Origin: Neodothiora populina
Lineage: Eukaryota
DNA length: 64,000 nt
Assembly: GCF_041146345.1 (NCBI RefSeq)
Contig: NW_027191410.1
Coordinates: 1,302,001-1,366,000, forward strand
Direction of reading: 5' to 3'
Below the pieces are notes generated by a model. It had not been told where the DNA came from, ran no database searches, and was given only the letters and a program-made list of their open reading frames with translations. Numbering within the stretch: position 1 is the first letter of the stretch; each line of letters begins with the position of its first letter. A program made the translations under genes and the position numbers. This document shows, piece by piece, positions 15,499 to 38,156 of the stretch.

Positions 15499-16963
15499 TT
15501 AGTACTTGGTGAGGCTCGGGCTTCCGGCACATGGAGGGGCAGAAAACTTGGTCTCAACGAAAACCTTCTGCATGCCGTCTTCTTTCTTGTCAAACTTGTG
15601 ATAGACCGTCTCGAGATCTTCGACGCGCACTCTGTGTGACACCATCTTGAGAGGGTCAATCTTGCCTTCTTGGATCATCACAAGAAGTTCCTCCCAGTAT
15701 TTGTGGACAGGAGCTTGGCCGTTGCCGATGAAGCGGATGCCACGGTTCATAACAGATCCGATGTTGAAATGGTTTGTCTGTGATAAGATCAGATTAGTAC
15801 CGCACCGAATATTGCACATGGATTACTTACGTATCCAACGTAGACACCAGTGATGCCAACGCTTCCGAAACCTCGCACACTCTCAATCATCTCGTTTAGA
15901 ATCTCACTTGTGTCTGTCTCGAGGCCAGTAGCGATCTCTAGCTTGTGAGCCCAACTCTGAGGATATTCGCCGGCGACGCACTCGAGCGCCACATTCGGAC
16001 CAACTCCTTCAACCATTTCCTTGAGCTTGCTTACGACAGTCTCACCCTTGGGAAGCTCCAGGAAGTTGATGGTCTCCACGTTGGGGTACATCTCCTTGAC
16101 CCTGTCGAGACGCCAATTGCAGTCAATCACAATGACTCGTTTAGCACCGTTGATGTAGCAAAAGTCGATGCACATCTGTCCGATGGGGCCAGCACCCCAG
16201 ATGGCAACGACGTCGCCCTCCTTGACACCGGTGTCAACCACGCAGTTCCAGCTCGTGCAGATGACATCGGACAGGTAGAGACCCTTCTCGTCGGGAACAT
16301 CGTCGGGTAGTTTGAGCAAGTTGACGTCGCCAAAGGGAATCCGCGTGTATTCCGACTGACCTCCGGCAAATCCTCCGGTGAAATGCGAGTATCCAAAGAA
16401 GCCAGCGGTGTTGCCTCCGTACATGCCTCGCTCAATGGTGTTGGCATTGGTCCTGCAGCATTGAGAAGACAGCTTCTGCTTGCAGTAAATGCAGTCACCA
16501 CACGCAATCTGGAAACTCGCCACGACTCTGTCTCCCTTCTTCAGATTGGTGACGCCCGTTCCGACTTCGTCGACTATACCGCAGAACTCATGACCGAGGA
16601 TATCGCCCTTTTGCATCTCTACAACAGAACCGTGGAGGAGATGGAGATCACTTCCACAGACGGTGCTACCCGTAATCTTGAGGATAACATCACGGTCCTC
16701 GATGAGGATGGGCTTCGGAACGTCAATGACTTTGACGTTGTTCTTGCCCTGGAACGTCAAGGCCTTCATCATCACACTGGTATCTCCATACTTGTTGTTG
16801 TTGAGAGCTGGATTCGTAACACTGTTGATACAACCATCATCAGCAAATGTCATCAATACTGCTGCTTCTCAGCTCCCGATCGAACGCACTCTTGTATCGT
16901 AACGGCATTGTCTCCGTGGCCAATGGCCTGCTCAACCTTGAAAGCTGCCTGTGACATTGCCAT
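15499..16963 (-). CDS. Zn-dependent medium-chain dehydrogenase (formaldehyde dehydrogenase-like); 3 exons
   Basis: CGSDLH, GHEFCG, structural Zn site CGDCIYC..C, GAGPIG Rossmann motif; first exon MAMSQAAFKVEQAIGHGDN (start 16963 or 16957). Confidence 0.9.
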
Positions 16964-18112
16964 GTTTGCGAGCGTAGTGGGTGACTTGATGTGGAGGGAT
17001 GTTGTAAGAATATGCTTCACTAGTAAGGTATAATAATCAAAGGATGAGACCTTCCTTATTTCTCATTAGAATGTTCCCAAACTTTATACCCTTTTCGAAA
17101 AAGGAATGTTGTACCATCGTAGCTGGTACTACTAAAACACCCGCGACCCTCCGTTTCAGACATTAAAAGTGTATACGTCAGGCTGAGCAAATGTGTTAAT
17201 CCTACGTCATCCAGCGCTCATTAGCGTCGTCAAAATCACGGCACAAATGCGCCAACAAAGACCCGCCATGGTAGAGTATGAGTACATCTACACAATGCCT
17301 CCTACGCGAGGCGTTTGTGTAACTAGGTAGTCCGTTGGACATGAGTCGAGCGCAGTCTGTTGGATATAAGCCGAGCGAAGTCCGTTGAACGTGAGCCGAG
17401 CGAAGTCCGACACCCACCCGGAATCCTCGTTATCAGCAGCTTGTACAAGTATAGGACTTTCGTAGTGGAAAACTGAGCCATATTGTGATGTCAGGGGCTG
17501 CGGCTTCTGAAATCCACTGTGAACGGTATTTGTGATTTTGTCCAGATGCCTTCTCCATGCAAGAGAGACGGTGCTGTGGAGGACGACCCAAAGAGCTTCC
17601 TGCAGATAGATGAAAGAAGATGCGTAAGCTTGGCAACGTTCCCCGCGGTCGGCGCCTCACTTCTCCGTGCCCCTCATCGACCCCTTGCCTTACCTTACCT
17701 CGTGAGGCATCCCTTGGCCTGCAAGAACCCCCCAGATAGCGTTTTGCACTCGCACCATTGCTCTCATCAGTGTTTCTGAGTTGCTCGTATCAAAAAATTA
17801 TCAAGAAGCTATCAAGAAGTTGAGTATCAGAATGGTGTCAGTAGCACAAGTACCTTAGATGGCAAAGAACATTCTTGTCTCAAGGTAGCAGCATTTGTTG
17901 GATTAAAGTAAGGCATCCGGCGCACGTCCCGAACAGGCAGGTAGAGTAATGTCACTTGGCCGGAGTGGCTACAGCTCGTGTTCGGGCAACGTTTGGCCAT
18001 GGTTGCATGATCAAGAAAAAGGTGTATCCAATAGCTCACGTCTTTCAGTCGTGATACTAATGCTCTAGTCCTCCATTAACACGGAAAATAGTAATCATCC
18101 ATCAAGGTAGTC

Positions 18113-19537
18113 ATGGATAGCTCTTTCGACGTAGTTGCTACTAGGAAGCAATTCCCCGCGCTCGACAAGAGCCAAATTTACTTTGACAACGCTGGTGGTA
18201 GTCAAGTACTTGGTCAAGTTGCTGAAGCGTACGTACTCGAGATATTAAGAACATCAGTGACAAGCGTGGTTGACCATGTACAAGCATCTCGAACTATCTG
18301 TTGTCTTCTAACGTACAGCTCGGTGCTTCATATCCCGTAGCACAACAGTCGACAGACCTTTTTGTGAAGGGCAAAGCAGCAGCTGCTACATATGTCAATG
18401 CATCACCTGCTGAAGTCGGTAAGATGGCTAAGGTGATACTTGGACAGGATGATTATTTCTGACGCGACACGTAGTGCTGGGACCTTCCACCACGCAACTT
18501 TTCCGGAATCTCTCATTAGCATTGTGGGAGCATCTGACTCCTGGCTCTGAGATTATCTTGTCTAAACTTGATCATGAGGCAAATGTCGCATCGTGGTTGC
18601 AGCTTGCCTCTTGGAGAGATCTCACCGTCAAGTGGTGGGGTTCGCCTGACAAGCACAACCCTCAGCTTGACTGCGAGGTACTTAAGACTTTACTGACTGA
18701 CAAGACCAAGCTGGTAGCATGTACCCATACCAGTAACATCCTGGGAACCATCAGTCCCATCAAGCAGATTGCCGAGACTGTCCATACCATCCCAGGCGCA
18801 CTTTTATGCGTCGATGGTGTGGCCTACGCTCCGCACAGGCAGATTGATGTCGAAGATCTCGGAGTCGACTTTTATTCGTTCTCGTGGTACAAAGTAAGTA
18901 TCGTAGCTCACGTGCCTCTCGTCCCCACTTGACGAATCAATCCAGGTGTACGGGCCTCACATAGCCATGATGTATGCGAAGCAATCGAGCCAGTCTTATC
19001 TTCGAACACTCGGTCATTATTTCAAGGGTACAAACAACCTTGAGGATCTGCTTGGCCTTGCAGCTGCGAACTATGAGCTGACATCTTCCGTACCGGTTGT
19101 TTGTCAGTATCTCAGTCAGATACCTTGGAACAGCATTGCAAAACACGAAGAGACCATCCAAGGTTTTCTCCTTGACTATCTCAGATCCAAGGATGCTGTA
19201 CAGATCTATGGCGAACCTACCGCTGATGCCAGCAAGCGTGTACCAGTCATCAGCTTCACGGTCAAAGGCAGAAGCAGCAGAAGCGTTGTTGAAGAAATCG
19301 AATCCACGAGTAACTTTGGATTTAGATGGGGTTCTTTCTATAGCAACAGATTGGTTCAGGAAGTTATGGGTTTGGATCCGGTGGATGGAGTGATAAGAAT
19401 AAGTCTTGTTCACTATAACAAAGGTAAGCTCAATCCCACGAACGCGTATTAGACCGGTGGAAATAATGGCTAACGTGGAGACAGCGGACGAGGTCAAGAG
19501 CTTCGTTCGAGTTCTGGACGAGGTCCTGGGCGCTTAA
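18113..19537 (+). CDS. Class V PLP-dependent aminotransferase fold, cysteine-desulfurase-like / UstD-like; about 5 exons
   Basis: FPAL..YFDNAGGSQ, DHEAN, SNILGTI, VDGVAYAPH, FSWYK (PLP lysine), RISLVHYN; stop TAA at 19535-19537. Confidence 0.88.
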
Positions 19538-19995
19538 TGTACGTCAAAGTTATCTGCTTGTCCTTAGAGGAGGGTACGCTATCTCAAGTATGTGTATGTA
19601 AGGTAATCAGAATAAACTTTTGGATAAGCAGTCCAGATCATGGAGAAAATCACAAACACCAAATACCGAATACAACACCCGACAATGTTCACGTACGTGA
19701 GCCAACGCTTGCCTCTTGGCTCAGCGATAATCTTCAGTCTGCTCACTGGATATCAATGGTCACAAGAGTCGGATGTGATATTGAGTTTGACGCTAACACA
19801 AACTCTACTTTACCCCACGACCGAGGTTCAATGACGGGAGTCAATGTTACGCGGGGGCTGGCCCAAGAGTCTGGGGTTACTGGCAGAGTAGAGGAGGAGA
19901 AGGACCACCTCATCTGGGGTAGGTAAGTCTATAAAGGTTGGATCCTCTGCATGGTCAATATATAAACATATCTGTCAACACTCATTACTAACAAC

Positions 19996-21654
19996 ATGTC
20001 TCCTTCCAAGGTATCAACCGTGCAATTTGACTCATTCTCGAACATTGTCGACGGGCAATGCCGTAGCGGCAAGTCCTTCCATCAAGGAATTAATCCGTCC
20101 AGTGGCGAGAAGCTGTGGGATGTTCCAATTGCCACCCAGCAAGATGTGGACGATGCCGTCCGTTCTGCAGAGAAAGCCTTTGTTTCCTGGAGCCAGACTA
20201 CACTTGCACATAGAAAGGACCTCCTGCAAAAGTTCTGTGATCTCTACATGAGCCACAACGATGAGATGACCGATCTGTTGTGTAAAGAGACTGGCAAGCC
20301 GGTGAGTCAGACATTGAAGCGGGAGTCAAGCACCCATCTCTGACAAGAACCAGCGTCAATTTGCAAGCTTTGAGGTCCAGGGTGTCAGCATGTGGTTCTC
20401 TCATCACTTGACGCTCGAGATCCCACAAGAAAGGGTTGAGGACGACGACAAGATCTTGACGACTCGTTACACCCCTCTTGGTGTAGTTGGTGCCATATGT
20501 CCTTGGAACTTTCCCCTTATCCTTTCTTTCGGAAAGATTATTCCAGCGATCCTTACCGGTTGCACCATCATTGTCAAGCCATCGCCCTTTACGCCATACA
20601 GTGCCCTCAAGGCAATTGAGCTTGCCCAAGAGATCTTTCCCCCCGGCGTACTCCAAGCTCTTGGTGGAGACGATAAGTTGGGTCCCATGATGACTGCTCA
20701 TCCTGGTATCGCCAAGATCAGTTTCACTGGATCTATTGCCACGGGTAAGAAGATCATGGAGGCCTGCTCGAAGACATTGAAGCGTGTCACCCTTGAACTT
20801 GGAGGCAACGACGCGTCTATTGTGCTTCCTGATGTAGACATCGAGAAGACCGCCCCAGAACTTGTTATGGGAGCTTTCCAGAACTCCGGCCAGGTATTTA
20901 CTCTTCAATTGCAACATATGCATGCTGCAACAACAATTTATGCGCCCAATTTTGGATCGCGCACAACGGTACGAGATGCTAATATTCATATCAGGTCTGT
21001 GTCGCGACTAAGAGGATCTACATCCACGAGAAAATCTACAAGCCAATGTTAGAGGCTATGGCAAAGGCCGCCGCTAATCTGAAAGTCGGCTCTCCGGACG
21101 AGGAAGGCGTCATGCTCGGTCCAATCCAGAACTCCATGCAATACGAGCGTGTCAAAACTTTCTTCGCGGACTCGAAGGAGAAGGGCTACAAATTCGCCAC
21201 GGGAGATCCAGACGTTGCCACCGGCAAGGGGTACTTCATTCAGCCCACGATTATCGACAATCCACCTAACGATAGCAAAATCATTGCCGAGGAACCATTC
21301 GGTAGGATACGCTCCATCTCTGCGGTTCGACCCTAGAAGCGATTACTAATATTTTCACTAGGTCCAATTGTGCCGACACAGCCATGGTCGGACGAAGAGG
21401 AAGTTATCGCTCGCGCAAATGGCACCAACACCGGCCTGGGCGCATGCGTGTGGAGTAAGGATGTAGAAGCAGCCGAGAAAATCGCAATGAGACTTCAAGC
21501 CGGCAGTGTCTTTGTCAATAGTTGGGAGAAGCCGACTCCTCAAGCAGTGTTCGGAGGACACAAGGAGAGCGGCATTGGAGGTGAATGGGGTACGCAGGGG
21601 CTTCTGGCTTACTGCAACCCTCACGTCATTCATACCTATAAGAGCAAGATGTAG
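19996..21654 (+). CDS. NAD(P)-dependent aldehyde dehydrogenase; 4 exons; PTS1-like SKM end
   Basis: ICPWNFP, KPSPFTP, FTGSIATG, LELGGND, NSGQ-VC (catalytic Cys across the intron), EEPFGP, FGGHKESG. Confidence 0.95.
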
Positions 21655-22018
21655 GGATGACTCGAGGACGATGTAGCGCAAATTTAACCCGATATGCAGT
21701 CACTGATTAAATAGAATCGAGCGATCAATTTCAAATGAACCATGCTGTTCATGTCTTATACCACGTCACGATGCGCTTTCATGCACACGAGACGAATGCG
21801 AGGCGTCAAGGCCAAGAGTATTGGTCTGTGCTTCTGCATCCTTCAATCCTTCGATCCTGCCAACTATTGTTCAAGGTAACGCTATCTTATATATTTCACA
21901 ATGATCGACTCCAAGCTATGGTACAAGTACCTGTATCTTGATTGGTCGATGAAGAAAGGTACAGATGTCCATTGAAGACGGATTCTTTGATTGAATTCTT
22001 TATTTTCACCCATTGAAA

Positions 22019-23241
22019 ATGAAACACTATCTCACCGTAGCGGTGCTACTGCTGGCGTCAACTTACGGGACGTACGCCCTTTTCGGATTCGGCTATAAGA
22101 ATGGACTACTGGCGCTGGTACAGGAGCAACTCAAGTCTGGTCATGTTGCAGACGGTGTCGCGGCCGAGGTCACTTCTCCGACAGGCATTGCGTCGGCAGA
22201 CGAGCAATTAGCTGGATTGCTGACCTTCTTCTGGCCTGTGCTAGACGGCAGTAGACCAGATGTATCCCTTCACTGCCTGTACTTCGGAGGTCAATGTATT
22301 GCGATGTGGACCATCACAGCGATTGAGGGTCTTCGTGCCGGTAACAGAGGTCGCATGGTCGCATGGTGAGTACTGCCGAGTTGTTGCAATTGCCATTTGC
22401 TAAGCTCTGCAGCACAACAATATACGGGTTATTGTTCCAGACGATAGGAATCGCGGTCGCAGCGCCACTTTATCTGGTCCTGCATCTAGCCACCTCTCCT
22501 ACTGCCACCAATCCCATGGTCGCAAATTCACAGGTAAACTCGAACGAGTTGCAAGCTCTGCCATTTAGTACGATCACTGGGTTTATCATCCCATCGATAT
22601 TCATGTCCCTGCACGCGCCAAGCTACTTGACCTGGGACATGAAGGCTTATGCAATCTTGCTTTGGCAGTTCTTTCCTTTGTGGTGCTACCTTTCGCAATG
22701 GGTCTGGAAACGCCTCTTCACTATCAGATCTGTTGGACCAAGGTCCCATCATCTCGATCCCGACAGGAACTTGATGGAAGTGCGAAATATGAGAAAAGTA
22801 TACTTCTTCGCCGTCGCATGCACAGCTATCATACACATCGGCGTATGGTCTGTCTCTGTTGCGGCTTTCATGTTTCCTTCTTCGTTCGCCGAAGGACTAG
22901 CTCCCAGTCTAGTACCCTCAAGACTTTTCGTCCCGACTGGTCCGTGGTCAAGTGTCAAGGCCGATTCAATTGCCACCGGAGCCCATTGGCTTTTGCAATG
23001 GGACCTCGTGATAAGCAGCTCCGCATATCTGCTATGGGCCTGTTATATGGCATTTAACACCAAAGCAAAGACGGAAAACATCCATGGGTATTTCCAAGAT
23101 GCGTTTGCGATGCTTTTGAAAGTATCTCTCCTAGGTCTGGCTGGAGCTGCGGCCTATACTATCTGGGAGAGGGACGAGCTAGTTTATAGCGAAAACCCAC
23201 GACAAAGGACATACGAACAAGCTAGTCGTAAGACGCTGTAG
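22019..23241 (+). CDS. Multi-pass membrane protein resembling the AtmA/PaxA/CtvD-like family; 2 exons
   Basis: Intron about 22366-22412; several hydrophobic helices; TGIASADEQLAGLLTFFWP, W....EGLRAGN, APLYLVLHL, WQFFPLW, LLQWD, WERDE segments. Family assignment from memory. Confidence 0.6.
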
Positions 23242-23575
23242 TGGTTCTTGTGAAAGCTCCCAAAGGAATACAACAACGTATGTCTATGAGAGTAAGCTAT
23301 GAGGCTCTGTGTTAGATGACAGCATTGTCTCTGGCTTCGTTGCTAGAGACTCGTCAAGTATCATGCCGTCTTCGCATATGCGAGGCCGCTACATGATAAG
23401 TAGCTCATCGGCATAGATTTTCCACACGGATGTGCTATATTTTGTCCAAGTAGATTGCCAGACCACGCTGTCACTGAAATAATGCAGATCGTACGAAGCC
23501 AAGGAGATACAGATAAGTTTCAAGTCGAATGCCTGAGTCCCCGATTGTATCAAAACTCCGATCCGTCTGCTGGGA

Positions 23576-24832
23576 TCATAGTCGTGCTGCGCGCTTGAGT
23601 AGATCGACAGCCTCTTTTGCCATTCCCCTATATCTGGTATCAGTGATCAGCACACGAATGTGTCGACAAAACACTTACCATGACGCCTGATAGCCTGCCC
23701 CGCCAGCACCGTAGTTGTGAATCACAAGATTACTGCGATACTGCTGTCGCTCTAACCTCGCACCGCCTTTCCTACTTGCTACAGTGTGTCAGTATAGTCT
23801 TAAGTCATGGCGGTTAAGAACGCATACGTCTTAATCCCACCGCGTGTGAAATGACTTTTAGATCTTCCGGCTTCCCCAATTCAGGAGCCAGTGCGCAACA
23901 TCGCCGTTTGATGTCTTCCGCGAACCCGAGATCTACTTTGCCATCCCAAACATTATCCAATCGACATCCTCCAAGAATGACGCCTCCATGTGGACCACGT
24001 GGGAAGATGTATGTTGTATCTTTGTCAACCCGACGAGGCGATCTGAAATACATCCTGTCGAGATTTCTGGGGGGATTTTCTACGAGCATGACTTGGCCCT
24101 GATTGTGGTCAGCAAATTTACCCTACATAGTAACAGCGGGTCGTACGCACTCGGGTCGGGTAGACATTTTTGTCTTCTACTCCTTTCAAAGAGTAAGAAC
24201 CAAGACCAGTACAATTGAAATAGGCCGTCGCTCCAGGATAAGCTCGAAAGAGATCCTCGATGCTGTCAAACATAGCACGATGTATCGCTATCCCGCTGGC
24301 AAGGACTTGCGATTGTAGCCTTATCAGGACGTCAGAAGGGCGAAAGGCGATGTGACTGCGCATTCGCTACTCACCATGGTAGATACACTTGAGTATCGAT
24401 GACGAAGGTATCTAATTCGTAACCAAATGCGACTCCCGAAGGAAGATCTCTACTCGGGATCATTCTGAGGCCCCCTACAAGGCTCTCATACCATATCTTC
24501 TTAGTCTTAACACTGAGCACACCTGCATCCTCAATCGGATTGTCGTAAACAGCGTATATCTCCATGTTCCTGACGCCTGTCTTGCTCGTATCATTGGCCA
24601 GATGTTTCAAACGTTCATACGTTACAGCATCCCAATCTTCCTGCCGACCGTTATCCGTAGCTACGGACAGCCAGTTTGCGCCTGCCCATGGTGAGGCATA
24701 TTCAGGATGGCGGTCGCCTGGTAAGAATTTCGCAACCAATGTGATCTTGGCATCTGGATATCTTTTGTGCAGCTCTAAGGCGGTCGTGAGACCAACTACA
24801 CCGGCCCCTAGAATGACATAAGATCCTGACAT
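23576..24832 (-). CDS. D-amino-acid oxidase (FAD), peroxisomal; about 5 exons
   Basis: GAGVVGLTTA, YASPWAGAN, NCTGLG, P.RGQ, YIFPR, VGLRP, HNYGAGGAGYQASWG; ends ..LKRAARL (PTS1 ARL), stop at 23576-23578. Confidence 0.93.
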
Positions 24833-26277
24833 GCTAATGTGCGAGACGCGAATGCCTTATGGTACAGTCTGCGAGCGCGATAAGGAAATGTGAAAGATAA
24901 ATAGACGAGTAGCGAGATCCACAATAGCAGCCGAGCTGCCATGCCAAGAACGTCGGGCCGGTTCTGGTACTTGTACAGCGACACCCGGTCTTCTTCGCTG
25001 CTTTCCCAACATCAGAATATGGCTTTGGATCTCGTAGAAGATACCAAACTACGCTCGAGCTACTGACTCGGACAGAATCATGATCGCATAAGATGATGGT
25101 TAGATTAGCCAGGAAAGTCAGCATGGACAGCCAAATTAGCGCCACGGGAGTGTTACAGGCCAACCTTGAGCTGATAGGCCAAAATTGTAACATGAATCTT
25201 CAAGATTTGTAGAGAATCTAGACAAGGGAGGCACGCGGCTCAGCATCTGCCACTACCAGACGCGAAGGACCTAGAAGTGAATGCTATGTTTTTATCACCT
25301 GCTCACTATTCACAGTACTATTTCCAGTCTTTTCCAATCTACCCACTGTATGCAGGGTAAGGTAGTTAAATGATAGGTTAGCATCAGCTGAAGCCGAGTG
25401 GACCCTGAACGTCGCAAGTGAGATATCTTAGCCATACGGGATCACGATGAGCTCCTTATCTTGTCGCAGATATGCAAGGGGGGCGTCTACCATCGCACAG
25501 TAGTTCGCATCGCTGCGACACTAATATATTGCCAGCAAACCGCTGTGGATACACCGCGATTGACAGTGGCAGACTCGATGTGTTTCAGGACGGGAGTATA
25601 CCTTGAGGTAGGTAGGCAAAATTGCCAAGACCAAGGCCGCGGCAGCTGTTCTACTGTTTAAGACGTCCGAAAGCGTACAAACACAATATCGAACTTGCCT
25701 TGCTTGACTGTCTTGCCATCTCGATGTTTCCACAATATTGCCATACCCCTGTACTGCACTTCTCCACGCACAGGTCATGCGGGCCACCTCTCTTCAGATG
25801 GGTGGGCAGTTGGAATGTCGGGTGACATTGACCACCGATTCCATGTTTCTGGGTTTCATATCGAGAAACTCTTTGTGATTGGCGGTCGATCTGCATAGAT
25901 AAGTTTGTTATCAATTAACCGTCGTTGAGTGGATGTCCTGAGCTCCCAATGTTACATTTGGACCAGGCTGATATGGCACTTACCCTGCATAGAGTAGGAT
26001 CTTCATATCGTATCTATCAAATCACGCCTTGGCACAGTACCTATTCAGCTCCTTCTGATAAGACCTTTGCCAACCAATCTCTCCAGCTCGCGTGGATACA
26101 ATATGCATGCATGGGTCGTGATGTGGGTAGCATGTGGCGTTCTAGACACCGTCCAGCCGAAGACATATTTAGATAGGTCGCACGCCTCGAGAAGCACTTG
26201 CAGTTCTGTCCTGCTTCTTCGAATGTTCTGCGCCCGCTAGACCCCATCATTCCTCAAGCAGACGACAACAAGTTGCC

Positions 26278-28000
26278 ATGAGCGATTTCGAGAAAAAGAC
26301 GTCTCCGAACGTCGATGAAAGTCATGACAATGGCTCACCAGTGCCGGGTGAGATCTACACAGATCAAGACCATGGCGCCGATTCGGAGCTTCATAGGAAC
26401 CTGAGCACCAGGCATATAACGATGATAGCTCTAGGTAGTAGTATTGGTATGGGTCTATGGCTCGGAAGTGGTACCTCATTGCAGAATGGTGGCCCGGCGG
26501 GTATCTTCATAGGATATCTGCTTTCTGGATCTATGATCTGGGCCGTCAGTCATTCCATAGGAGAGATGGCCATCATGTATCCTCTACCTTCTGCATTTGT
26601 GCAATGGAGTTCAAAGTTCATTGACCCCGCTGCTGGATTTGCTTTGGGCTGGGCCTATTGGTTTTCCTACTGGATTACGATCGCGAACGAATTACAAGTC
26701 AGATCCCATGCCCACTCATTCCGCTTCATTCCGCTATGATACTGACAATGGCTATGCTGTAGGGAGTGGTGACAGTGCTTTCGTTCTGGACTACGGCTGT
26801 GCCCACTGCGGCCTGGATTACCATCTTCTGGGTCGTCATCATTTGTATCAACGTTGTCGGCGTCAAGTTCTTCGGCGAAGTAGAAGTCACTGCATCACTA
26901 ATAAAGTTCGGCTGGATCTTCGTTGTCATCATCTCCTCCATCGTGGTCTCGGCTGGAGGCGCCAAGTCAGAGGCAATAGGTTTCAGATACTGGAACAGCA
27001 TGCCCTTCACGAATGGTTTCAAAGGATTCCTCAGCGTGCTGCCTACTTGCATTTTCGCTATGAGCGGTAGTGAGAACGCTGGTTTGGTCGCTGCAGAGAC
27101 AGCTAACCCTCGTAAATCGGTGCCCAGAGCTGTAGGGAGTATTTGGCTGCGTTTGTCGCTGTTCTACATCCTCGGTTCTTTGATGATCACGATCACCGTA
27201 TCCCCAAAGGACCCGAACCTGTTTGGAGGATCGGGTACAAACGCATCCCCCTTCGTCATCGCTTACCGCAATTCTGGTCTCAGTCCTTTGGCTCATATCA
27301 TGAATGCCATCATCTTCATATCGGTTCTATCGACTGGTTCTATTTCTGGATACGCTGGTTCCCGGACATTGGTAGGCTTGGCTCAGATTGGCATGGCGCC
27401 CAAGGTAAGCTATTTCTTCTTTAATCGCGAATTGCCTACTGACTGGACCAGTTCTTCCAGAAAGCGGACAAGAGTGGCCGTCCTTGGTACGGTCTCTTCA
27501 TTACTCTTCTCATTGGAGGAGGTCTTGCCTACCTCAATGTCAGCAACACTGGCTCCGAAGTCTTTACGTGGTTTTCTAACTTGACGTCGCTGTTCACTCT
27601 CTTTGGATGGGGTATGATTTGCCTGTCACACTTACGCATGAGACATGCATGGAAAGTGCAAGGTCGTCCTGCGGAAGATTTACCTTGGAGATCCTGGACC
27701 TATCCCTGGGGCGCATACTGGGGCCTTTTCTGGTGCTGCTTGCTTCTCGTAGTCGAGTTCTATCTTGCTGTCTGGCCACTCGGCGACAGCCCCTCCGCGA
27801 AGAACTTCTTCGCAAACTACGTCTCAGTACCAGCGATCCTCGTCTTGTATATTGGTGCCAAGTGCTACTACGGAGGCCGCCGCTGGGTTGATACGGCCAC
27901 CATCGACTTGGACGCAAGCCGAAGGTGGTATAAGGAAGAAGACCACGAGAAGAGCAGTGGAAATATCGTGAAGAAAATCGTTGAAGGGATCTGGTCTTGA
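26278..28000 (+). CDS. Amino-acid permease (APC/YAT family); 3 exons
   Basis: LSTRHITMIALGSSIGMGL, GEMA, FFGEVE, GSENAGLVAAETANPRKSVP, SPFVIA; about 12 hydrophobic segments. Confidence 0.95.
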
Positions 28001-28527: not shown

Positions 28528-29025
28528 ATGGTAGCTGCAAATTTGACGACACTTTACAGGACGTTGATCACTGCGTCTCACATCCTCCATTATAACGAGA
28601 CCGACGTGCAAGATCTCCTTGTCCGCAACATTCCCTTGGGGGCAGCTCTTGCTGATGTACTCGCGGGCACGACTACTCAGGATAATGTGACGAACCCCGC
28701 ACACTCGACCGTCTTGCTAAGTAACCACGGGTTTACCACTTGCTCACAGAGTATCGAGCTTGCTGTGATGCAAGCTATGTATGTGCAAACAAATGCTGTT
28801 ATACAAGCTTCCGCACTCGCCTTACGTAACGCATACCTCGGCTCCCAAGGCAGCGCATTGGCTTACTTAAGTCCAAAAGAGGCTTCAGACTCTTGGGCAA
28901 CCATGGCAGGGACAGTCGATAGGCCGTGGAATATGTCGATGCATGAGGTTCAATCCTCAAACCTCTACGTTAACAGACTTGATCCAAACCAGACCGCGGC
29001 GGCTGCACCGGATTATGTTCTTTGA
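28528..29025 (+). pseudogene. Class II aldolase/adducin-family gene with a large in-frame internal deletion
   Basis: LITASHILHY joins directly to NETDVQDLLVRN..LGAALA..VLLSNHGFTT..DRPW. The GHISVR and HSH metal-binding segments normally found between them are absent. Confidence 0.7.
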
Positions 29026-29341: not shown

Positions 29342-31516
29342 TTAACCAATGTGTATGCGCCATAATTCCCTAGGCGCGCCCGGGGTAAAACCCGTACGCG
29401 TATGCATCATGCTGATATTATCACTCAATACCAGATCGCCAGCAACCCACTTATGATAGTAGCACACTCGTCGATCGTAGAGCAGTGAGTCCATGATGTT
29501 GGTCAATCTCACGCTCTCCTCACTACCGATATCATCGATAACGACTGTGGTCGGATCGAAGCGTGTTCGACTGGATGGCCATGGCTCGTGGTATCTCAGA
29601 CAAGGTTGTTTTGTTGTCGGATGCGGGACTACCAGCTTCAGTCCTTGGATTGTGCTATTGTCAAAGGCTGTGGTAGATACTGTCCAGGTAAGGTGTTCAA
29701 GCTGATCCAACGGGTGTGAATCTGGCAGATGCTCGAACAGGAGACGAGAAGAGGCGAGAAGAGTATCACCGCAATTCTCAGGCGATGGCGTTGCAACAGT
29801 AAACCACTGAAACCTAAATGGAATGTCAGCCGTGTCTTTCTCCATATCATCAGAAATACCCACTGTGGAGGTTGAGGAACTAGACGCTCTTTGCCATCAC
29901 TGTTCTTTACAGAGATCGTTTTGAACAGCCCATCGAAATGCATGGGCATTGGCTCAGCACTCAAGACATTGTTGAGGCCACCACTCTCGGTGCCTGCGTC
30001 CTTTACCACAAGAACCTCGCCAAATTTCCACGGCATCACGGCCCCAATCTCGCGAGCTTTGCGTACGAACAGGTCTCTATCTGTTGAATCCTGAAAGCCG
30101 CGGAAGACCAATGGTGAATTCAGCTCAGCCAATCCCCTAGCCTTTTGCATGTCGATATCTGCCATTGATAGATTTTGGCCATTGCTCGGAGTGATCAAAA
30201 GCCCGCATGGGTGTGTTGGAGCTATATCAACCTTGACGTCGTCCCAATCGTACAGATCGGATACCTTACGATAATGCGATTGCCTGCCATCGACGACAAC
30301 GAGTTCATAGGAGACATCGCCAGAGAAGACGTCTTGGTGCGCAAACCGCCAGGATCCATCTAGTTCTTGAGCACAGGTGCAATGCCATGGTGTCGTGTAT
30401 GCTGCGTGTCTTGACAGCAATGACACGGGAAGTTTTGATAGTTGCTCTGAGACATGTATCGACAAACGAATTGATGATGGAAATGCCTTTTCAATAGCGT
30501 TTGCGAAAGCCTAGATCATATGGGTCAATGAAGTGATACGTGTTGTCAATAGTGTCGCACTTACTGCGCCTCTTACGATCATCCGTTTGGCTACGGTCTC
30601 GTTCATCTTCTTGACCTTGCTCTTGCTGAGACCTTGCCTCGAAGGCTCATACTTGAGATCTGTGGCGAGAAACTTGATATATCCTCGATATGTCAGAAGC
30701 GTGTTGATCTGTTCCTTCAATGCAACATCAACATCGAATCCCTTCGGTAAGTGTTGTTGTAGCAGCTGGTCTCTGTACCACTGCGCATTCTCCAGATACT
30801 CTGTCAGAGTGGTGGGCTCTGGACATTCATCAGAGACCAGACTACTTAGTCTGGCGAACGATATATGCTGGCAATTACGGCTTGCAAGCTCTCGCAAAGA
30901 TGATCCGTAATGCCAAACATCCGTGTCAGATACGCCAAGGATGTCTGTGACGGTGATAAGAATCGATCACTACAATTGAAGGCGGCTGTTACTCACCATT
31001 GTACACGAGACCATCTGATACAATGCTCAAGGTGGTGTCGGGATAGACTTCCCGAATCTGACTACAGAGGCCATCGAGTCTGGCAAGTGCCAACTCTTCG
31101 CCTTTGTCTGGCAAAGCTCCTAAAACTTTGTCGATCCTGTTAGGTGACTTGAATGGAAAAGCAGGTAAGATGAAGTGCAAGTGCTTCTTGTCCTGCACCA
31201 CTCTTTTTATAGATGTTTTCAGTCTGAATGAGCTGGCCTTAGGAGATCTTTTTATTACGGTCGCTGGCGAGTAGGATTTCAAAATGCCAAATACTCGTTC
31301 AGAGATTATTCGATCCGCCTCACTCAGGCCTGGCGGCTCAGGGATATCGAGATATCGGTCCTCGGTGTTGGAGAAGCAGTTGCCGCCATCGGGTTGTGAC
31401 AGCGGTGAACCTAGCGAAGTTGATCTTGAGTATTCCGAAAGCTCACTGATCGCGGACACTCTGTCTGACTCAGGAGAGCTGTGCTGATCAACAAGAATTG
31501 AGGTTGGTGACGACAT
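29342..31516 (-). CDS. Isocyanide synthase (Dit1/PvcA family) fused to a TauD-type Fe(II)/2-oxoglutarate dioxygenase; 4 exons
   Basis: ICS motifs [50 protein letters not shown]; dioxygenase HFDG and MMHTRT..RELWRIH. Three GT-AG introns splice in frame with no internal stops. Confidence 0.93.
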
Positions 31517-32195
31517 ATTGATGGGAAGTAGTTCGGTTCAATAGTGACGCAGACAGAAGAGTCTAAGGAAATTATTTGTCTGACTGGATCTAAGCACAAG
31601 GTAGGCAGAAACAGGTGGTAGAACAAATGTTATATGTGCGGTACATCTCAATAAGACTTTGGACACGAGGCCCATGGTTCGGTAACACTGCGGGCTCGAT
31701 ACACTGGTTCTTTGAGGCACTGCATGTAGCGGAAAACCCCCGCTCGAGGGTCTTAATGGTGATTTGTGAGCTGTGGTATAGAGCATCGAACCCTAGATCG
31801 TGACAAAGCTCTCGCATATGAGCCGTCAGGTCACCTAACACCACCTAGTTGCATAGAGTCTTACTAGCGGCGAGCTGAGGCCAGGGTTCCACACCACAAC
31901 TGAATAGGCACAACTTGCGACCATGTGGGGATCACGGAGTTCATAGTTCATATTTTACATGAATCTAACTTGTAGCTCAGATTCATATACCGCGGAAGCG
32001 ATATTCTCGGATCAGTCAACGTTTGTGATTTTAGTGCTGCCGCTTTACTTACTCGCCGGACGCCTATCTCAGATGCTCGATTCGCCACAAATTATGCAAT
32101 GCAGTTGGAGGAACGTTACATTGGACAAGAAAATCTAGTAGTAAATGGCCACAGTGAATAAACGTGACTTTTCCAAATACAATCTATCGAGGTTT

Positions 32196-34039
32196 CTAAT
32201 TTGAAGTCCCAGCATTGATTGTTGGATCATTGCTGAAGCGATTGAAGTAAGAAGTGGCGTCATGACCAGCGTATCCAATGTAAAAGTCTGGGCGCATTAT
32301 CACGACCGCGTCCTCGGGGAAGGGATGTTCTGTTGTCAAGGTCGCAGGAGTGGAGGTGGTAACGTTCCATTTCTCTCCGTCCCTTGTGACAGTCCATATG
32401 TCGATACGATCTTCTAGCCAGGATGGTACAGAAATCCTCATCTTGCCACTGTTGAAGATAAGGAAGCGGCCGTATCTTGCAATTTCGTATAGCCTCAATA
32501 GGACTACGTTACTCTTCAGAAACGAGATGTCGGGGAATCGGCTCCCAGCTTGGAAGGACCCTGCACAGCTTTCCATGGTCGATAGAACATTCGGAGCGTA
32601 TTTGACGCCCATTCCCGTGATATTGGCAGCCTTTTGCTCTACAATTGTAACGTACTCCTGGGCAGTCCGTAAAGTGCTTCGTACGAGCTTTCCGGCGACT
32701 TCCACAACTGTTTCGGCAGCCTTTCGTCGCTCGATATCATAGGAACAAAGTAACTTCTGGCCTAAAGCCTCCGCGTAGCTTGTACAGCGAATAGCGAGTG
32801 CGAGGCGCCATACCAGACCAAATGCATCTGCAACGCCGGTATTGAGACCTTGGCCGCCATTGACGGCGTGGATATGACTGGCATCGCCAGCTAAGATAAT
32901 CTTAGATAACGGAGACGTGAAGGAAGCAGCGACTCGTTCTTGCACTATAAAAGGTCAGCGAAAAGAGTCATAGCCATGTATACCTTACACACCATCGTAT
33001 GTACTGAACCATTCAGTCTTGGAAAATTCAACATTAAATGGTGCCATATGTTTACGTATGGACTTCTCGGACTTTTCTTGTGTAACTTCACCTTCCAAGA
33101 GGATATAAAATCGAGCCATCCCGCGCTCTCTGTATAGAAGGTAAGCATCGTTACGCCAGAATTGATGGTACTGCTCACCTAGGGATCCACGACACTCTCG
33201 ATTGTCCATTGTGTTCAAAACTAATGATCTCGTTACAGACTGGAAAATCCGTTTTGATGAAAGTGTCCAGCACCGCCCAACGCATGTTTGGCATGTCTCC
33301 TCGGAATTCGATGCCTAACTGCTTTCGAATCTGGGATTGACCCCCGTCGGCGGCGATCAGATACTTGGAATACATGGTCTCTCCACCAACTGTGACTTTT
33401 ACTTCTCGGTCCGACTCTGACACTTTTGATACTTCAGTCTCGTAGAGGACATCGATGTCGAGATGCTTCACGAGTGCTCTCTCAACGTCTGCTTGACCAA
33501 TCATCAGGAACTCTTTGTACGCCGAATCGGCTATGCTTGTCCACCATCGATTGTTACGACTTTGGAATTCGCCATCCTTGAATACTGAACTCGCTAGAGT
33601 GGCGTTGGATGTAAGTCTCCAAAAGTTCCTAGGTGTGAAAGATGAACCTACTGTTGCAGAGCAGACCCTTTGGACGCAAATCTCCGAGTACACCAACAAT
33701 CTCGAGCACTTGCTGTGTGCGTGCATTGAGAGCATCTGCGCGGCCGGCTTCTAATGGGCCGGGTCTTCGTTCTGACATGCAGCATCAGCTTCCAAGCAGA
33801 TTGAGCCCCCCGGCGCTGTATACTTGCCACGATACTTACCGAAGATCTTTACAGTGAGGCCCAATTGCCGAGCAAGAAGAGCGCAACATAGTCCAGTTGG
33901 TCCAGCTAATGAGACGCATGAGATTCAAGTTGTGCTGCAGTTGTTGATCATTGGTCTGTGACTAACCTCCGACTATTATTACATCCGTCTCGCACCTCTG
34001 TGGCTGACACTGTTCAAGGTCGTTGATCCCACTTGCCAT
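32196..34039 (-). CDS. FAD-dependent monooxygenase (group A, phenol/aromatic hydroxylase type); 6 exons
   Basis: VIIVGAGPTG, GRADALNART, AADGGQS, LAGDASHIH..GGQGLNTG, SYDIERR, C-terminal RPDFYIGY. Five GT-AG introns splice in frame. Confidence 0.92.
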
Positions 34040-35962: not shown

Positions 35963-38156
35963 ATGTATCCCAAGCTGGGATGGACCGGACTCATCAGTCT
36001 GTTATCCTCTTTCTCAATCGATACGTTGCACGAAAACATCATGGCATACAGGACTGATTTGCGAGAAAGTCGACCCTCGGCTTGTTGGATTGCCAACTGT
36101 CCCATTCAATATCACTGGGTTGGGTGTGTTTGACGCGTCAAAAGTGAAATTTATACATGTGGATCCTTTGTACGCAAACTCAGTAAATAGCGAAGGAGAA
36201 ACCCTCATTCCACCAAAATTGATTGACTTTGCACATACCTTTGCAGAGGATCTACTGTCCAAACACCACATCGACGCTCGAGTTACTGAGCGTAGCCGGG
36301 GAGGCCTTGATTCCATCTTTCTCACTCTTGGCGACGATGCAGACTACCTCGATGCCGCTGGGAGACCTAGCGCAGAAGGATACGCACTCCACGTCGATCA
36401 TATAGGAGTGACAATATCTGGTGCAAGTCCCCTCGGTGTTTGGTGGGGAACACGCACATTTTTGCAGCAAGTGACACTAGGCAACGGAAGATTACCTCTC
36501 GGCACAGGACATGATACTCCCGGGTGGAGGACACGAGGAATGATGCTTGATATTGGACGGCATTACTATCCGCCTGACTTCATCACTGAGTTATGCACTT
36601 ATATGTCTTACTTCAAACAAAATACCTTCCATCTCCACTTGAGCGACAATCTTTATAACAACTTGGATGTGTACACAAGAGAAGAGAGTCTGGCACTCTA
36701 TGCGCGATTCAGGCTTTGGAGCGATTCAGCAACCGTGGACCGGCTGAACAAGCATAGGAACGAGTCCTATACCCGACAGAAATTTGATTCTATACAGCGC
36801 AGCTGCGCGCGAAGAGGAGTGACAGTGATCCCTGAGATCGAAGCTCCAGGCCATGCTCTTGTTCTCACTCAGTGGAAGCCGCAGCTTGGTCTTAGCGATT
36901 TGAGTCTCCTGAATGTCTCATATCCAGACACCATCCCCACTATGCAGTCAATATGGAGGACTTTTGTTGACTGGTTCCATTGCAAGACAGTCCATATCGG
37001 TGCTGACGAATATACCGCCTCTCCTACGGACTACACTAGCTTTGTCAACACAATGGATAGATATATCACCAGTATATCTGGAAAGCATATTCGAATCTGG
37101 GGCGCTTTTACACCCAATGTCACGAATGGCTATCCGGACCATGGCGTTTCTATCCAACACTGGGCTGCATTTGAGGCAAATCCATATACGGCTTTCATCC
37201 AACAGAACTATTCGGTAGTCAATTCGGACGATTGGATGTACTGTGTTGCGAAATATTCTGGCAGTTATCCTCAAGTATTGGAACCTGCCAAAGCTTTCTC
37301 GATTCCAAGTGGGGGACCTTGGTACCCATATGTTTTCGACACCAAAAATTCTTCGAACAATCCGGCGCCGTCCGATCGAAGGATCCTTGGAGCGGTCGCT
37401 GCTCTCTGGAACGACTACGGACCCTCAACAACAACGTACTTAGAAGCATACTACACTTGGAGGCGAGGTCTACCTGCTGTTGCTGATAGACAATGGCGAG
37501 GCGATATCAGTGAGGACGAGTACTATCGCATCTTCGCTAAGCTCCATGCAGATATCCCTGGCCAGAACTTGCATCGGACCGTGGCCTCCAAGTCCTCGAC
37601 GATCCTAAGGTATAAGTGGAACGGTACAAGAAATGCTACTGGGCCCGACCTGACTGTGTACGATCTATCTGGCAATGGCTACAATGCTATCGCATCATGC
37701 CCAATCAACGAGAATGGAACATTACCCTTGAATGTTTCTTGTCACTTGACGACTCCACTCAATTCCGAGGGTAGGAATTATACCATGACAATCATGCTCA
37801 GAATTAGTGAGATGTCCGAGGACAGGAACACGCCTGCACGATTGCTCAGTGGGCGGGATTCTGTACTATACATAAGCCCTACTGTGGGACTCAAGTCCAG
37901 CAATGGATGGCTGTATGCCACTGATCAACATATACCTGTCAATACATGGACTACACTTGTTGTCAGCGGAAGGAATAACGAGACGTATATCCAGATCGGA
38001 GAAGCAAAGGAAGTTCAAGTCACTACAACGGTTAATGTCAATAGTGAGACGAACGAAACCAGCCCAATAGCCATTGAGGCTCCATTAGAACGTTTTGGCG
38101 GCGATGGCTGTGGATTCTCCGGAGAGCTGAACTTCTTCGAACTTTTAAGTACATAG
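35963..38156 (+). CDS. GH20 beta-N-acetylhexosaminidase, secreted; intron 1 has a non-canonical donor (possibly inactivated)
   Basis: RGMMLDIGRHYY, HLHLSDN, PEIEAPGH, catalytic HIGADE, WNDYG. Signal-peptide exon 35963-36020 joins in frame only through an AT..AG intron 36021-36069. Confidence 0.88.

Follow-up and report, generated by a model that had tools for sequence, protein, structure and literature searches.

In Pseudomonas, the pvcABCD genes combine an isocyanide synthase (ICS) and an enzyme that depends on iron and 2-oxoglutarate (Fe/2OG) with flavin-dependent oxidation of the ring. In the xan cluster of Aspergillus fumigatus, the ICS is fused to a TauD-type Fe/2OG domain in XanB, which is proposed to make a tyrosine-derived vinyl isocyanide (PMC5974471), and the cluster further contains the cytochrome P450 XanG, the DJ-1 hydratase XanA and a methyltransferase. 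Here we describe a compact unit of two genes, an ICS-TauD fusion gene and a flavin monooxygenase (FMO) gene, in a 64,000-nucleotide stretch of the genome of Neodothiora populina (contig NW_027191410.1, positions 1,302,001 to 1,366,000; hereafter the window), which is eukaryotic DNA from contig C2 of the 24-Mb host genome (G000). The unit is not a member of the pvcABCD or xan systems; it resembles an IsnAB- or XanB-type pathway followed by a phenol monooxygenase, and it is an intact and minimal representative of a widespread, already catalogued family for which no product seems to have been described.

The catalogue in question is a survey of fungal ICS clusters (Nickles 2023; PMC10153163), which reports two lineages of ICS-TauD proteins. 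One of its gene cluster families, GCF 6, shares with the window an ICS-TauD backbone of the non-xan lineage, and its range (Eurotio-, Sordario-, Leotio- and Dothideomycetes and one basidiomycete record) fits that of the relatives we found. Our unit probably belongs to this family, the number being assigned from the class range, and differs from the catalogued clusters in retaining just the two core genes. Table S4 of the survey contains at least 412 FAD_binding_3 rows and at least 760 TauD rows, and its main text makes no mention of a flavin adenine dinucleotide (FAD) monooxygenase. Among the papers listed in our literature searches, judged by title and the opening of the abstract, we found neither a described product of an ICS-TauD and FMO pair nor a link of this FMO family to isocyanides; the supplementary tables of the survey may name core genes.

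The ICS-TauD gene lies at 29342..31516 on the minus strand. Its four exons (31516-30997, 30944-30565, 30510-29864 and 29813-29342) are separated by three GT-AG introns of 50-54 nt and encode 672 amino acids with zero internal stops, in exact agreement with database protein P0001, which is labelled Neodothiora populina (Dothideales). A DIT1_PvcA domain (PF05141, 293 bits against a cut-off of 26.4; approximately residues 103-369) and a TauD domain (PF02668, 96.7 bits against a cut-off of 27; approximately residues 423-669) occupy the single chain. The iron triad H491-x-D493...H653 is intact in the TauD domain, and its three residues, together with the substrate-binding W461 and R664, are invariant in 26 of 26 sequences. 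The ICS departs from its relatives at 4 of 162 highly conserved columns.

The FMO gene (32196..34039) is co-oriented with it, also on the minus strand, across a 679-bp spacer (31517..32195) with no open reading frame (ORF) of at least 100 amino acids. It has six exons (34039-33967, 33905-33840, 33771-33652, 33593-33179, 33129-32993 and 32944-32196) and five GT-AG introns of 48-68 nt, giving a stop-free protein of 519 amino acids with the group A motifs GxGxxG, DG and GD and a PHHY-like fold. Only 1 of 121 highly conserved columns differs from its relatives. The deposited model of this gene, P0042 (475 amino acids), begins in exon 3 and lacks the N-terminal FAD-binding motif GAGPTG that the 519-residue spliced model contains. 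The preliminary description of this DNA had proposed two adjacent, co-oriented and spliceable genes, one an ICS fused to a TauD domain with its iron ligands in place and the other a single-component FAD hydroxylase, and all of this is borne out.

The family to which the FMO belongs has sharp boundaries, and its bacterial members define NF005531 (PRK07190). Against that model it scores 345.7 bits, under the curated cut-off of 530, as measured on the N-terminally short P0042. The fungal and bacterial proteins form sister clades that are joined with a Shimodaira-Hasegawa-like approximate likelihood ratio (SH-aLRT) support of 100 against 23 other FMOs. Residues R57, D59, I223, R231 and Y233 match the pocket of phenol hydroxylase and of VibO, a ring-expanding monooxygenase, and this pocket is nearly invariant across the two kingdoms. 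The family was also seen in two amoebae (P0152 and P0077), candidates for either transfer or contamination: Balamuthia has a copy of the bacterial clade, whereas that of Planoprotostelium groups with the fungal proteins.

The association of the two genes extends well beyond the window. Fungal proteins were searched with one exon of each gene as query, and ten matches per gene were looked up, those without a partner being either unchecked or not listed. An FMO or FAD_binding_3 neighbour accompanies 7 of the 10 ICS relatives (six by accession and Uncinocarpus through Table S4), and an ICS-TauD protein lies no more than two accessions away from 9 of the 10 FMO relatives. Consecutive accessions were seen in Hymenoscyphus fraxineus, H. 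albidus, Diplocarpon rosae, Tricladium, Halenospora, Phyllosticta capitalensis and Apiospora aurea, and consecutive locus tags in Drepanopeziza and Fusarium sarcochroum; the adjacent accessions span four ascomycete classes. Table S4 adds pairs in Uncinocarpus, Coccidioides (with one gene between), Penicillium expansum, Talaromyces marneffei, F. graminearum, Aspergillus flavus, three Trichoderma species and Sphaceloma, the neighbour in the last of these groups being known by its FAD_binding_3 label only, with orthology to the FMO assumed (PMC10153163). Larger fungal clusters add genes for short-chain dehydrogenases/reductases (SDRs), GNAT proteins, metallo-hydrolases and P450s. The pair is conserved and not rare: accessions, catalogue rows and metagenome loci from across the fungi all connect the FMO with ICS orthologues. 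The sole basidiomycete relative of the ICS that was seen, P0298, comes from a 7-kb contig, groups with Sordariomycetes and may be contamination.

The metagenome loci place this linkage in one part of the ICS tree. A TauD domain is present in 23 of 80 metagenome ICS loci and the FMO in 4 of those 23 (L092, L115, L119 and L124), all four of which fall within the ICS clade of the window. The FMO had no match in the nine ICS-TauD loci of the outgroup clade, some of which have xan-like neighbours. Three loci with xan-like content (L099, L131 and L156) form a separate ICS clade from the window with support of 100/100, XanB itself being outside the tree, and the window has no match for a P450, a DJ-1 hydratase or a methyltransferase of the xan type. 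The scan with seven tailoring, transport and protection queries returned no window match for P450, DJ-1, O-methyltransferase, major facilitator superfamily (MFS) or metallo-beta-lactamase-fold proteins, and of the 135 ORFs listed, the 66 that were scanned include no P450 or nonribosomal peptide synthetase (NRPS)-like gene, in agreement with what had been noted earlier. The suggestion that the route is distinct from xan is supported as far as the ICS clade is concerned. The pairing itself is common and already catalogued, which the preliminary description had missed.

In bacteria, the same three activities occur as an operon. A contig search with the fungal FMO alone gave zero confirmed relatives among 71 candidates, and an alignment of bacterial matches was needed. 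Loci were then selected by the FMO alone, and in the best 80 of 181 a PvcB-like TauD gene lies just upstream of the FMO in all 80 and an ICS in 76; the four loci without an ICS are contigs that end less than 1.5 kb upstream. LysR genes are present in 37 and MFS genes in 16 of these 80. As a reverse control, five bacterial ICS loci were inspected together with 16-20 kb of surrounding sequence, and one of them has the FMO; L197 and L198 were too short to be included. The operon, found in Vibrio, Legionella, Bdellovibrio, Flavobacteriaceae, Burkholderia and others, is like the window in its three activities, its sister-clade FMO and its decarboxylating signature (see below), and differs in that ICS and TauD are mostly separate genes. 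This isnA/pvcA-isnB/pvcB-PRK07190 operon, and not pvcABCD, is the true bacterial counterpart of the window unit. Because the fungal ICS and TauD domains show no specific grouping with the FMO-linked bacterial ones in unrooted quick trees, what the two kingdoms have in common is the enzyme partnership, and these trees do not show that the bacterial operon entered fungi complete and in one event.

Several bacterial loci deserve mention. In Vibrio and Marinomonas (L009:9834-11657, L012 and L018), a stand-alone PvcB and the FMO are accompanied by a divergent ICS-TauD fusion, the TauD part of which scores weakly. In six Legionella loci (L025, L026, L031, L042, L043 and L047), an FAD monooxygenase directly follows isnAB, whereas a P450 was reported to be always associated with the cluster (PMC5126622). 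A text match to lpg0176 was discarded, as it proved to be a plasmid name in an unrelated locus. VC1945, which we take to be the FMO, is noted only for its co-expression with a virulence subnetwork. Earlier work (Brady et al. 2007, JACS 129:12102) may cover bacterial versions.

What the pair makes may be approached through its TauD domain. Lysine or arginine together with asparagine or histidine at the positions of PIsnB K107 and N188 are reported to mark decarboxylating enzymes, while leucine and cysteine mark the acrylate-forming PvcB (Kim 2022; PMC9467999). The window protein has K497 and H591 at these positions, as set through an alignment with PvcB, and is therefore of the PIsnB type. The first position is lysine or arginine in 40 of 41 fungal and arginine in 74 of 74 bacterial TauD domains; the second is histidine in 38 of 41 fungal and asparagine in 60 of 74 bacterial domains. 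Clusters of the rhabduscin/byelyankacin type share this IsnB signature and the proposed intermediate, 4-(2-isocyanovinyl)phenol, which has been put forward for both XanB and IsnAB; there, the phenol is glycosylated and not oxygenated, and in loci L193 and L194 a glycosyltransferase is present while the FMO is absent.

With this in mind, we propose, with a probability of about 0.65, that the two genes form a minimal pathway to a ring-oxygenated, tyrosine-derived vinyl isocyanide; gene integrity, linkage, clade and signature are computed, and the chemistry is what we infer. According to this proposal, the ICS domain would combine L-tyrosine with a carbon from ribulose-5-phosphate into tyrosine isocyanide, as its family suggests, and the Fe/2OG domain, judging by the signature residues tested in its relatives, would decarboxylate this to 4-(2-isocyanovinyl)phenol. 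The FMO, using NAD(P)H and O2, would then place one oxygen on the phenol ring to give C9H7NO2, in keeping with its conserved linkage and its phenol-binding pocket; one oxygen is expected because the enzyme keeps the pocket residues that are common to VibO and phenol hydroxylase. Within this proposal, an ortho-catechol ranks first, with about even odds, followed by a VibO-like oxepinone as a possible but less favoured outcome, and an ipso-quinol or another product would be less expected still. In other fungi, the larger clusters would modify the ring-oxygenated isocyanide further. By analogy with xanthocillin and rhabduscin, the isocyanide produced probably acts against microbes or inhibits metalloenzymes.

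Several observations weigh against this proposal. Single swaps at the signature positions left the product unchanged, so that the TauD signature is a correlate only (PMC9467999), and cysteine occupies the second position in 9 of the 74 bacterial TauD partners. Linkage to the FMO is not absolute: catalogue rows list no FAD_binding_3 for T. asperellum cluster 771, Coleophoma cluster 834 and Metarhizium cluster 85 (the ICS being the edge gene of the called cluster in the latter two), and the FMO was not found in L120 and L136, two short metagenome loci of the window's own clade. The seven queries found no transporter or isocyanide hydratase in the window. Finally, in the unrelated spg cluster, knockout of an FAD oxygenase is reported to have had no effect on the product. 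SpgI was also considered as a characterised relative of our FMO and rejected, as the spg-type locus L192 has no match to the FMO family and its FAD enzyme is of the FAD_binding_4 type.

A more novel form of the proposal, which we regard as possible but unlikely, is that the FMO family expands the ring. VibO (PDB 7YJ0) yields an oxepinone and a minor catechol (PMC10257657), and it is the best match of our FMO in the PDB by sequence (269 against 222 bits) and rank 1 by fold. VibO residues R97, D99, I279, R287 and Y289 all have equivalents in the FMO, of which the aspartate, isoleucine and tyrosine are PHHY residues as well. The usual proline is also absent from both enzymes: the position of Val298 in the window protein is Ala363 in VibO, is valine in 113 of 115 family matches and 78 of 79 bacterial ORFs, and is proline in 75 of 101 outgroup proteins, which hints at unusual chemistry in this family. 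However, identity to VibO is merely about 26%, the FMO is about 130 amino acids shorter, and the fold score of VibO is nearly tied with that of a hydroquinone hydroxylase (E = 1.5e-27 and 2.1e-27).

If the ring were expanded, conversion of 4-(2-isocyanovinyl)phenol to an isocyanovinyl oxepin-2-one would be a core chemistry common to bacteria and most classes of ascomycetes, and the window pair would be the minimal entry module, acquired from a fungus of the Helotiales. Cyclopentyl isonitriles of Trichoderma originate from tyrosine, and one of them, dermadin, is C9H7NO3, corresponding to the vinyl phenol plus two oxygens. Dermadin and the isonitrins are made by Trichoderma species, and the catalogue rows of Trichoderma clusters include additional SDR, GNAT, metallo-hydrolase and P450 genes (PMC10153163). 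One may speculate that the Trichoderma metallo-beta-lactamase-fold hydrolase, SDRs and P450 open, recyclise and epoxidise the oxepinone to cyclopentyl isonitriles, dermadin and isonitrinic acid among them.

One alternative to the proposal takes the vinyl isocyanide itself as the toxic end product and the FMO as an enzyme of self-protection or disposal that oxidises it. The window has no DJ-1 isocyanide hydratase, which is found in 21% of ICS clusters (PMC10153163), drug-inactivating rifampin monooxygenases are among the PDB relatives of the FMO, and some ICS relatives have no listed FMO, all of which would suit such a role. We nevertheless consider it improbable, since the pocket is phenol-hydroxylase-like and nearly invariant in two kingdoms, and the SDR, GNAT, metallo-hydrolase and P450 genes of larger clusters look like further tailoring. 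Slightly less probable again is a different substrate, in which the ICS uses tryptophan, or the FMO acts earlier, on tyrosine or its isocyanide, to give a hydroxyindole or a DOPA-type isocyanide. In favour of this, the top PDB match of the ICS carries the label of a Tyr/Trp isonitrile synthase family protein. Against it, L-tyrosine isonitrile synthase is the NCBIfam model that fits best, although at 125 against a cut-off of 600 the score is far under the threshold, and the FMO pocket retains the phenol-binding aspartate and tyrosine.

The preliminary description had likened the unit to pvcABCD, and this likeness is not supported. The three activity classes agree (ICS, Fe/2OG enzyme and flavin hydroxylase), and the signature rule is correlative, but conversion through an isocyanoacrylate to an isocyano-dihydroxycoumarin is very doubtful. 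PvcB, with its leucine and cysteine, keeps the carboxylate, whereas the window TauD has K497 and H591, so that the carboxylate required for the coumarin lactone would be lost; judging from the formulas, paerucumarin requires this carboxylate and two further ring oxygenations. PvcC is an HpaB-type enzyme, and neither PvcC nor PvcD is known to be a group A FMO. The host genome had zero matches to PF03241, a search whose control was positive in 4 of 14 genomes, and thus holds no HpaB-type gene by this measure, while the FMO has an isnA-isnB operon of its own in bacteria. The earlier product guess therefore stands in one part, a ring-oxygenated vinyl isocyanide being the best guess, and falls in the other, a coumarin being improbable. 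Least of all do we expect that the pair, though intact, has fallen out of use as the leftover of a cluster acquired horizontally and now situated in decaying surroundings: the adjoining aldolase is deleted and an MFS gene, which in three metagenome loci separates the pair, is absent from the window, but 8 of 8 introns are canonical, there are zero stops, just 5 of 283 conserved columns deviate, and the neighbouring GH20 gene is possibly intact.

The origin of the pair is unusual for its host. In trees computed under LG+G4, the window ICS nests among Helotiales with support of 100/100 and the FMO does likewise with 98-99, while the host belongs to Dothideales. Approximately unbiased (AU) tests reject a grouping of the ICS with other Dothideomycetes (p=1.2e-4) and of the FMO with Botryosphaeriales (p=2.6e-90), and also Helotiales to the exclusion of the window protein (p=0.010 for the ICS and 4e-4 for the FMO); the groups tested were named after quick trees had been viewed. 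To limit run time, the ICS tree left out 27 of 58 rows; one of these was Pseudocercospora, a Dothideomycete whose protein falls with those of Sordariomycetes. No ICS is present in 2 of the 4 Aureobasidium species checked, and the catalogue lists an ICS-TauD, FMO and MFS cluster in Sphaceloma murrayae (PNS20094/PNS20095; Myriangiales, a related order). Taken together, these placements lead us to lean, tentatively, towards horizontal transfer of both genes from Helotiales; old paralogy with loss is also possible, because there are further places where gene trees and species tree disagree.

As a cluster type, the locus is unsurprising. If it belongs to GCF 6, it represents one of the three most widespread fungal ICS cluster families, the other two being dit and crm and the three together making up 27.5% of ICS clusters (PMC10153163), and it is the one of the three for which we found no product. 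Its relatives include genes of Fusarium, Trichoderma, Aspergillus flavus, Penicillium and numerous plant pathogens, and the enzyme trio is an operon in several bacterial phyla. The two-gene version, having no accessory genes, would be the simplest setting in which to study the core chemistry. Should the FMO expand the ring, the genes for the Trichoderma cyclopentyl isonitriles would be in hand, along with a second natural family of oxepinone-forming enzymes.

The flanking genes lie outside the unit. On the plus strand, convergent with the ICS gene, a class II aldolase-like remnant (28528..29025) covers just positions 119-182 of the 183-position Pfam model. It fuses in frame two segments that a paralogue of the same genome keeps separated by about 740 nt, which supports an internal deletion; it was also rejected as a pathway gene, having no match in 80 ICS metagenome loci. 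The GH20 hexosaminidase gene (35963..38156, plus strand) has an ambiguous 5' end and an intact catalytic motif, HIGADE. A 55-nt GT-AG intron at 35997-36051 opens its frame from the ATG at 35963, so that the broken donor claimed earlier is unproven. Of the two neighbours first described as damaged, only the aldolase is therefore confirmed to be so.

A second ICS gene in the host genome (G000:C14:23540-24900; L002 and L004) is apparently monodomain and distant from the window ICS. It was rejected as a partner of the unit, as it gave one weak match to the window ICS, and its 40-kb surroundings gave no TauD or FMO match. Judged by eye, its neighbours are a GMC-oxidoreductase-like ORF close by and a large NRPS-like ORF at a distance of about 13 kb. 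Next to the unit, positions 15789-28000 of the window hold genes for an alcohol dehydrogenase, a class V aminotransferase, an aldehyde dehydrogenase, a DAO-type oxidoreductase and an amino-acid permease, a run with the appearance of a gene group for the catabolism of amines or amino acids.

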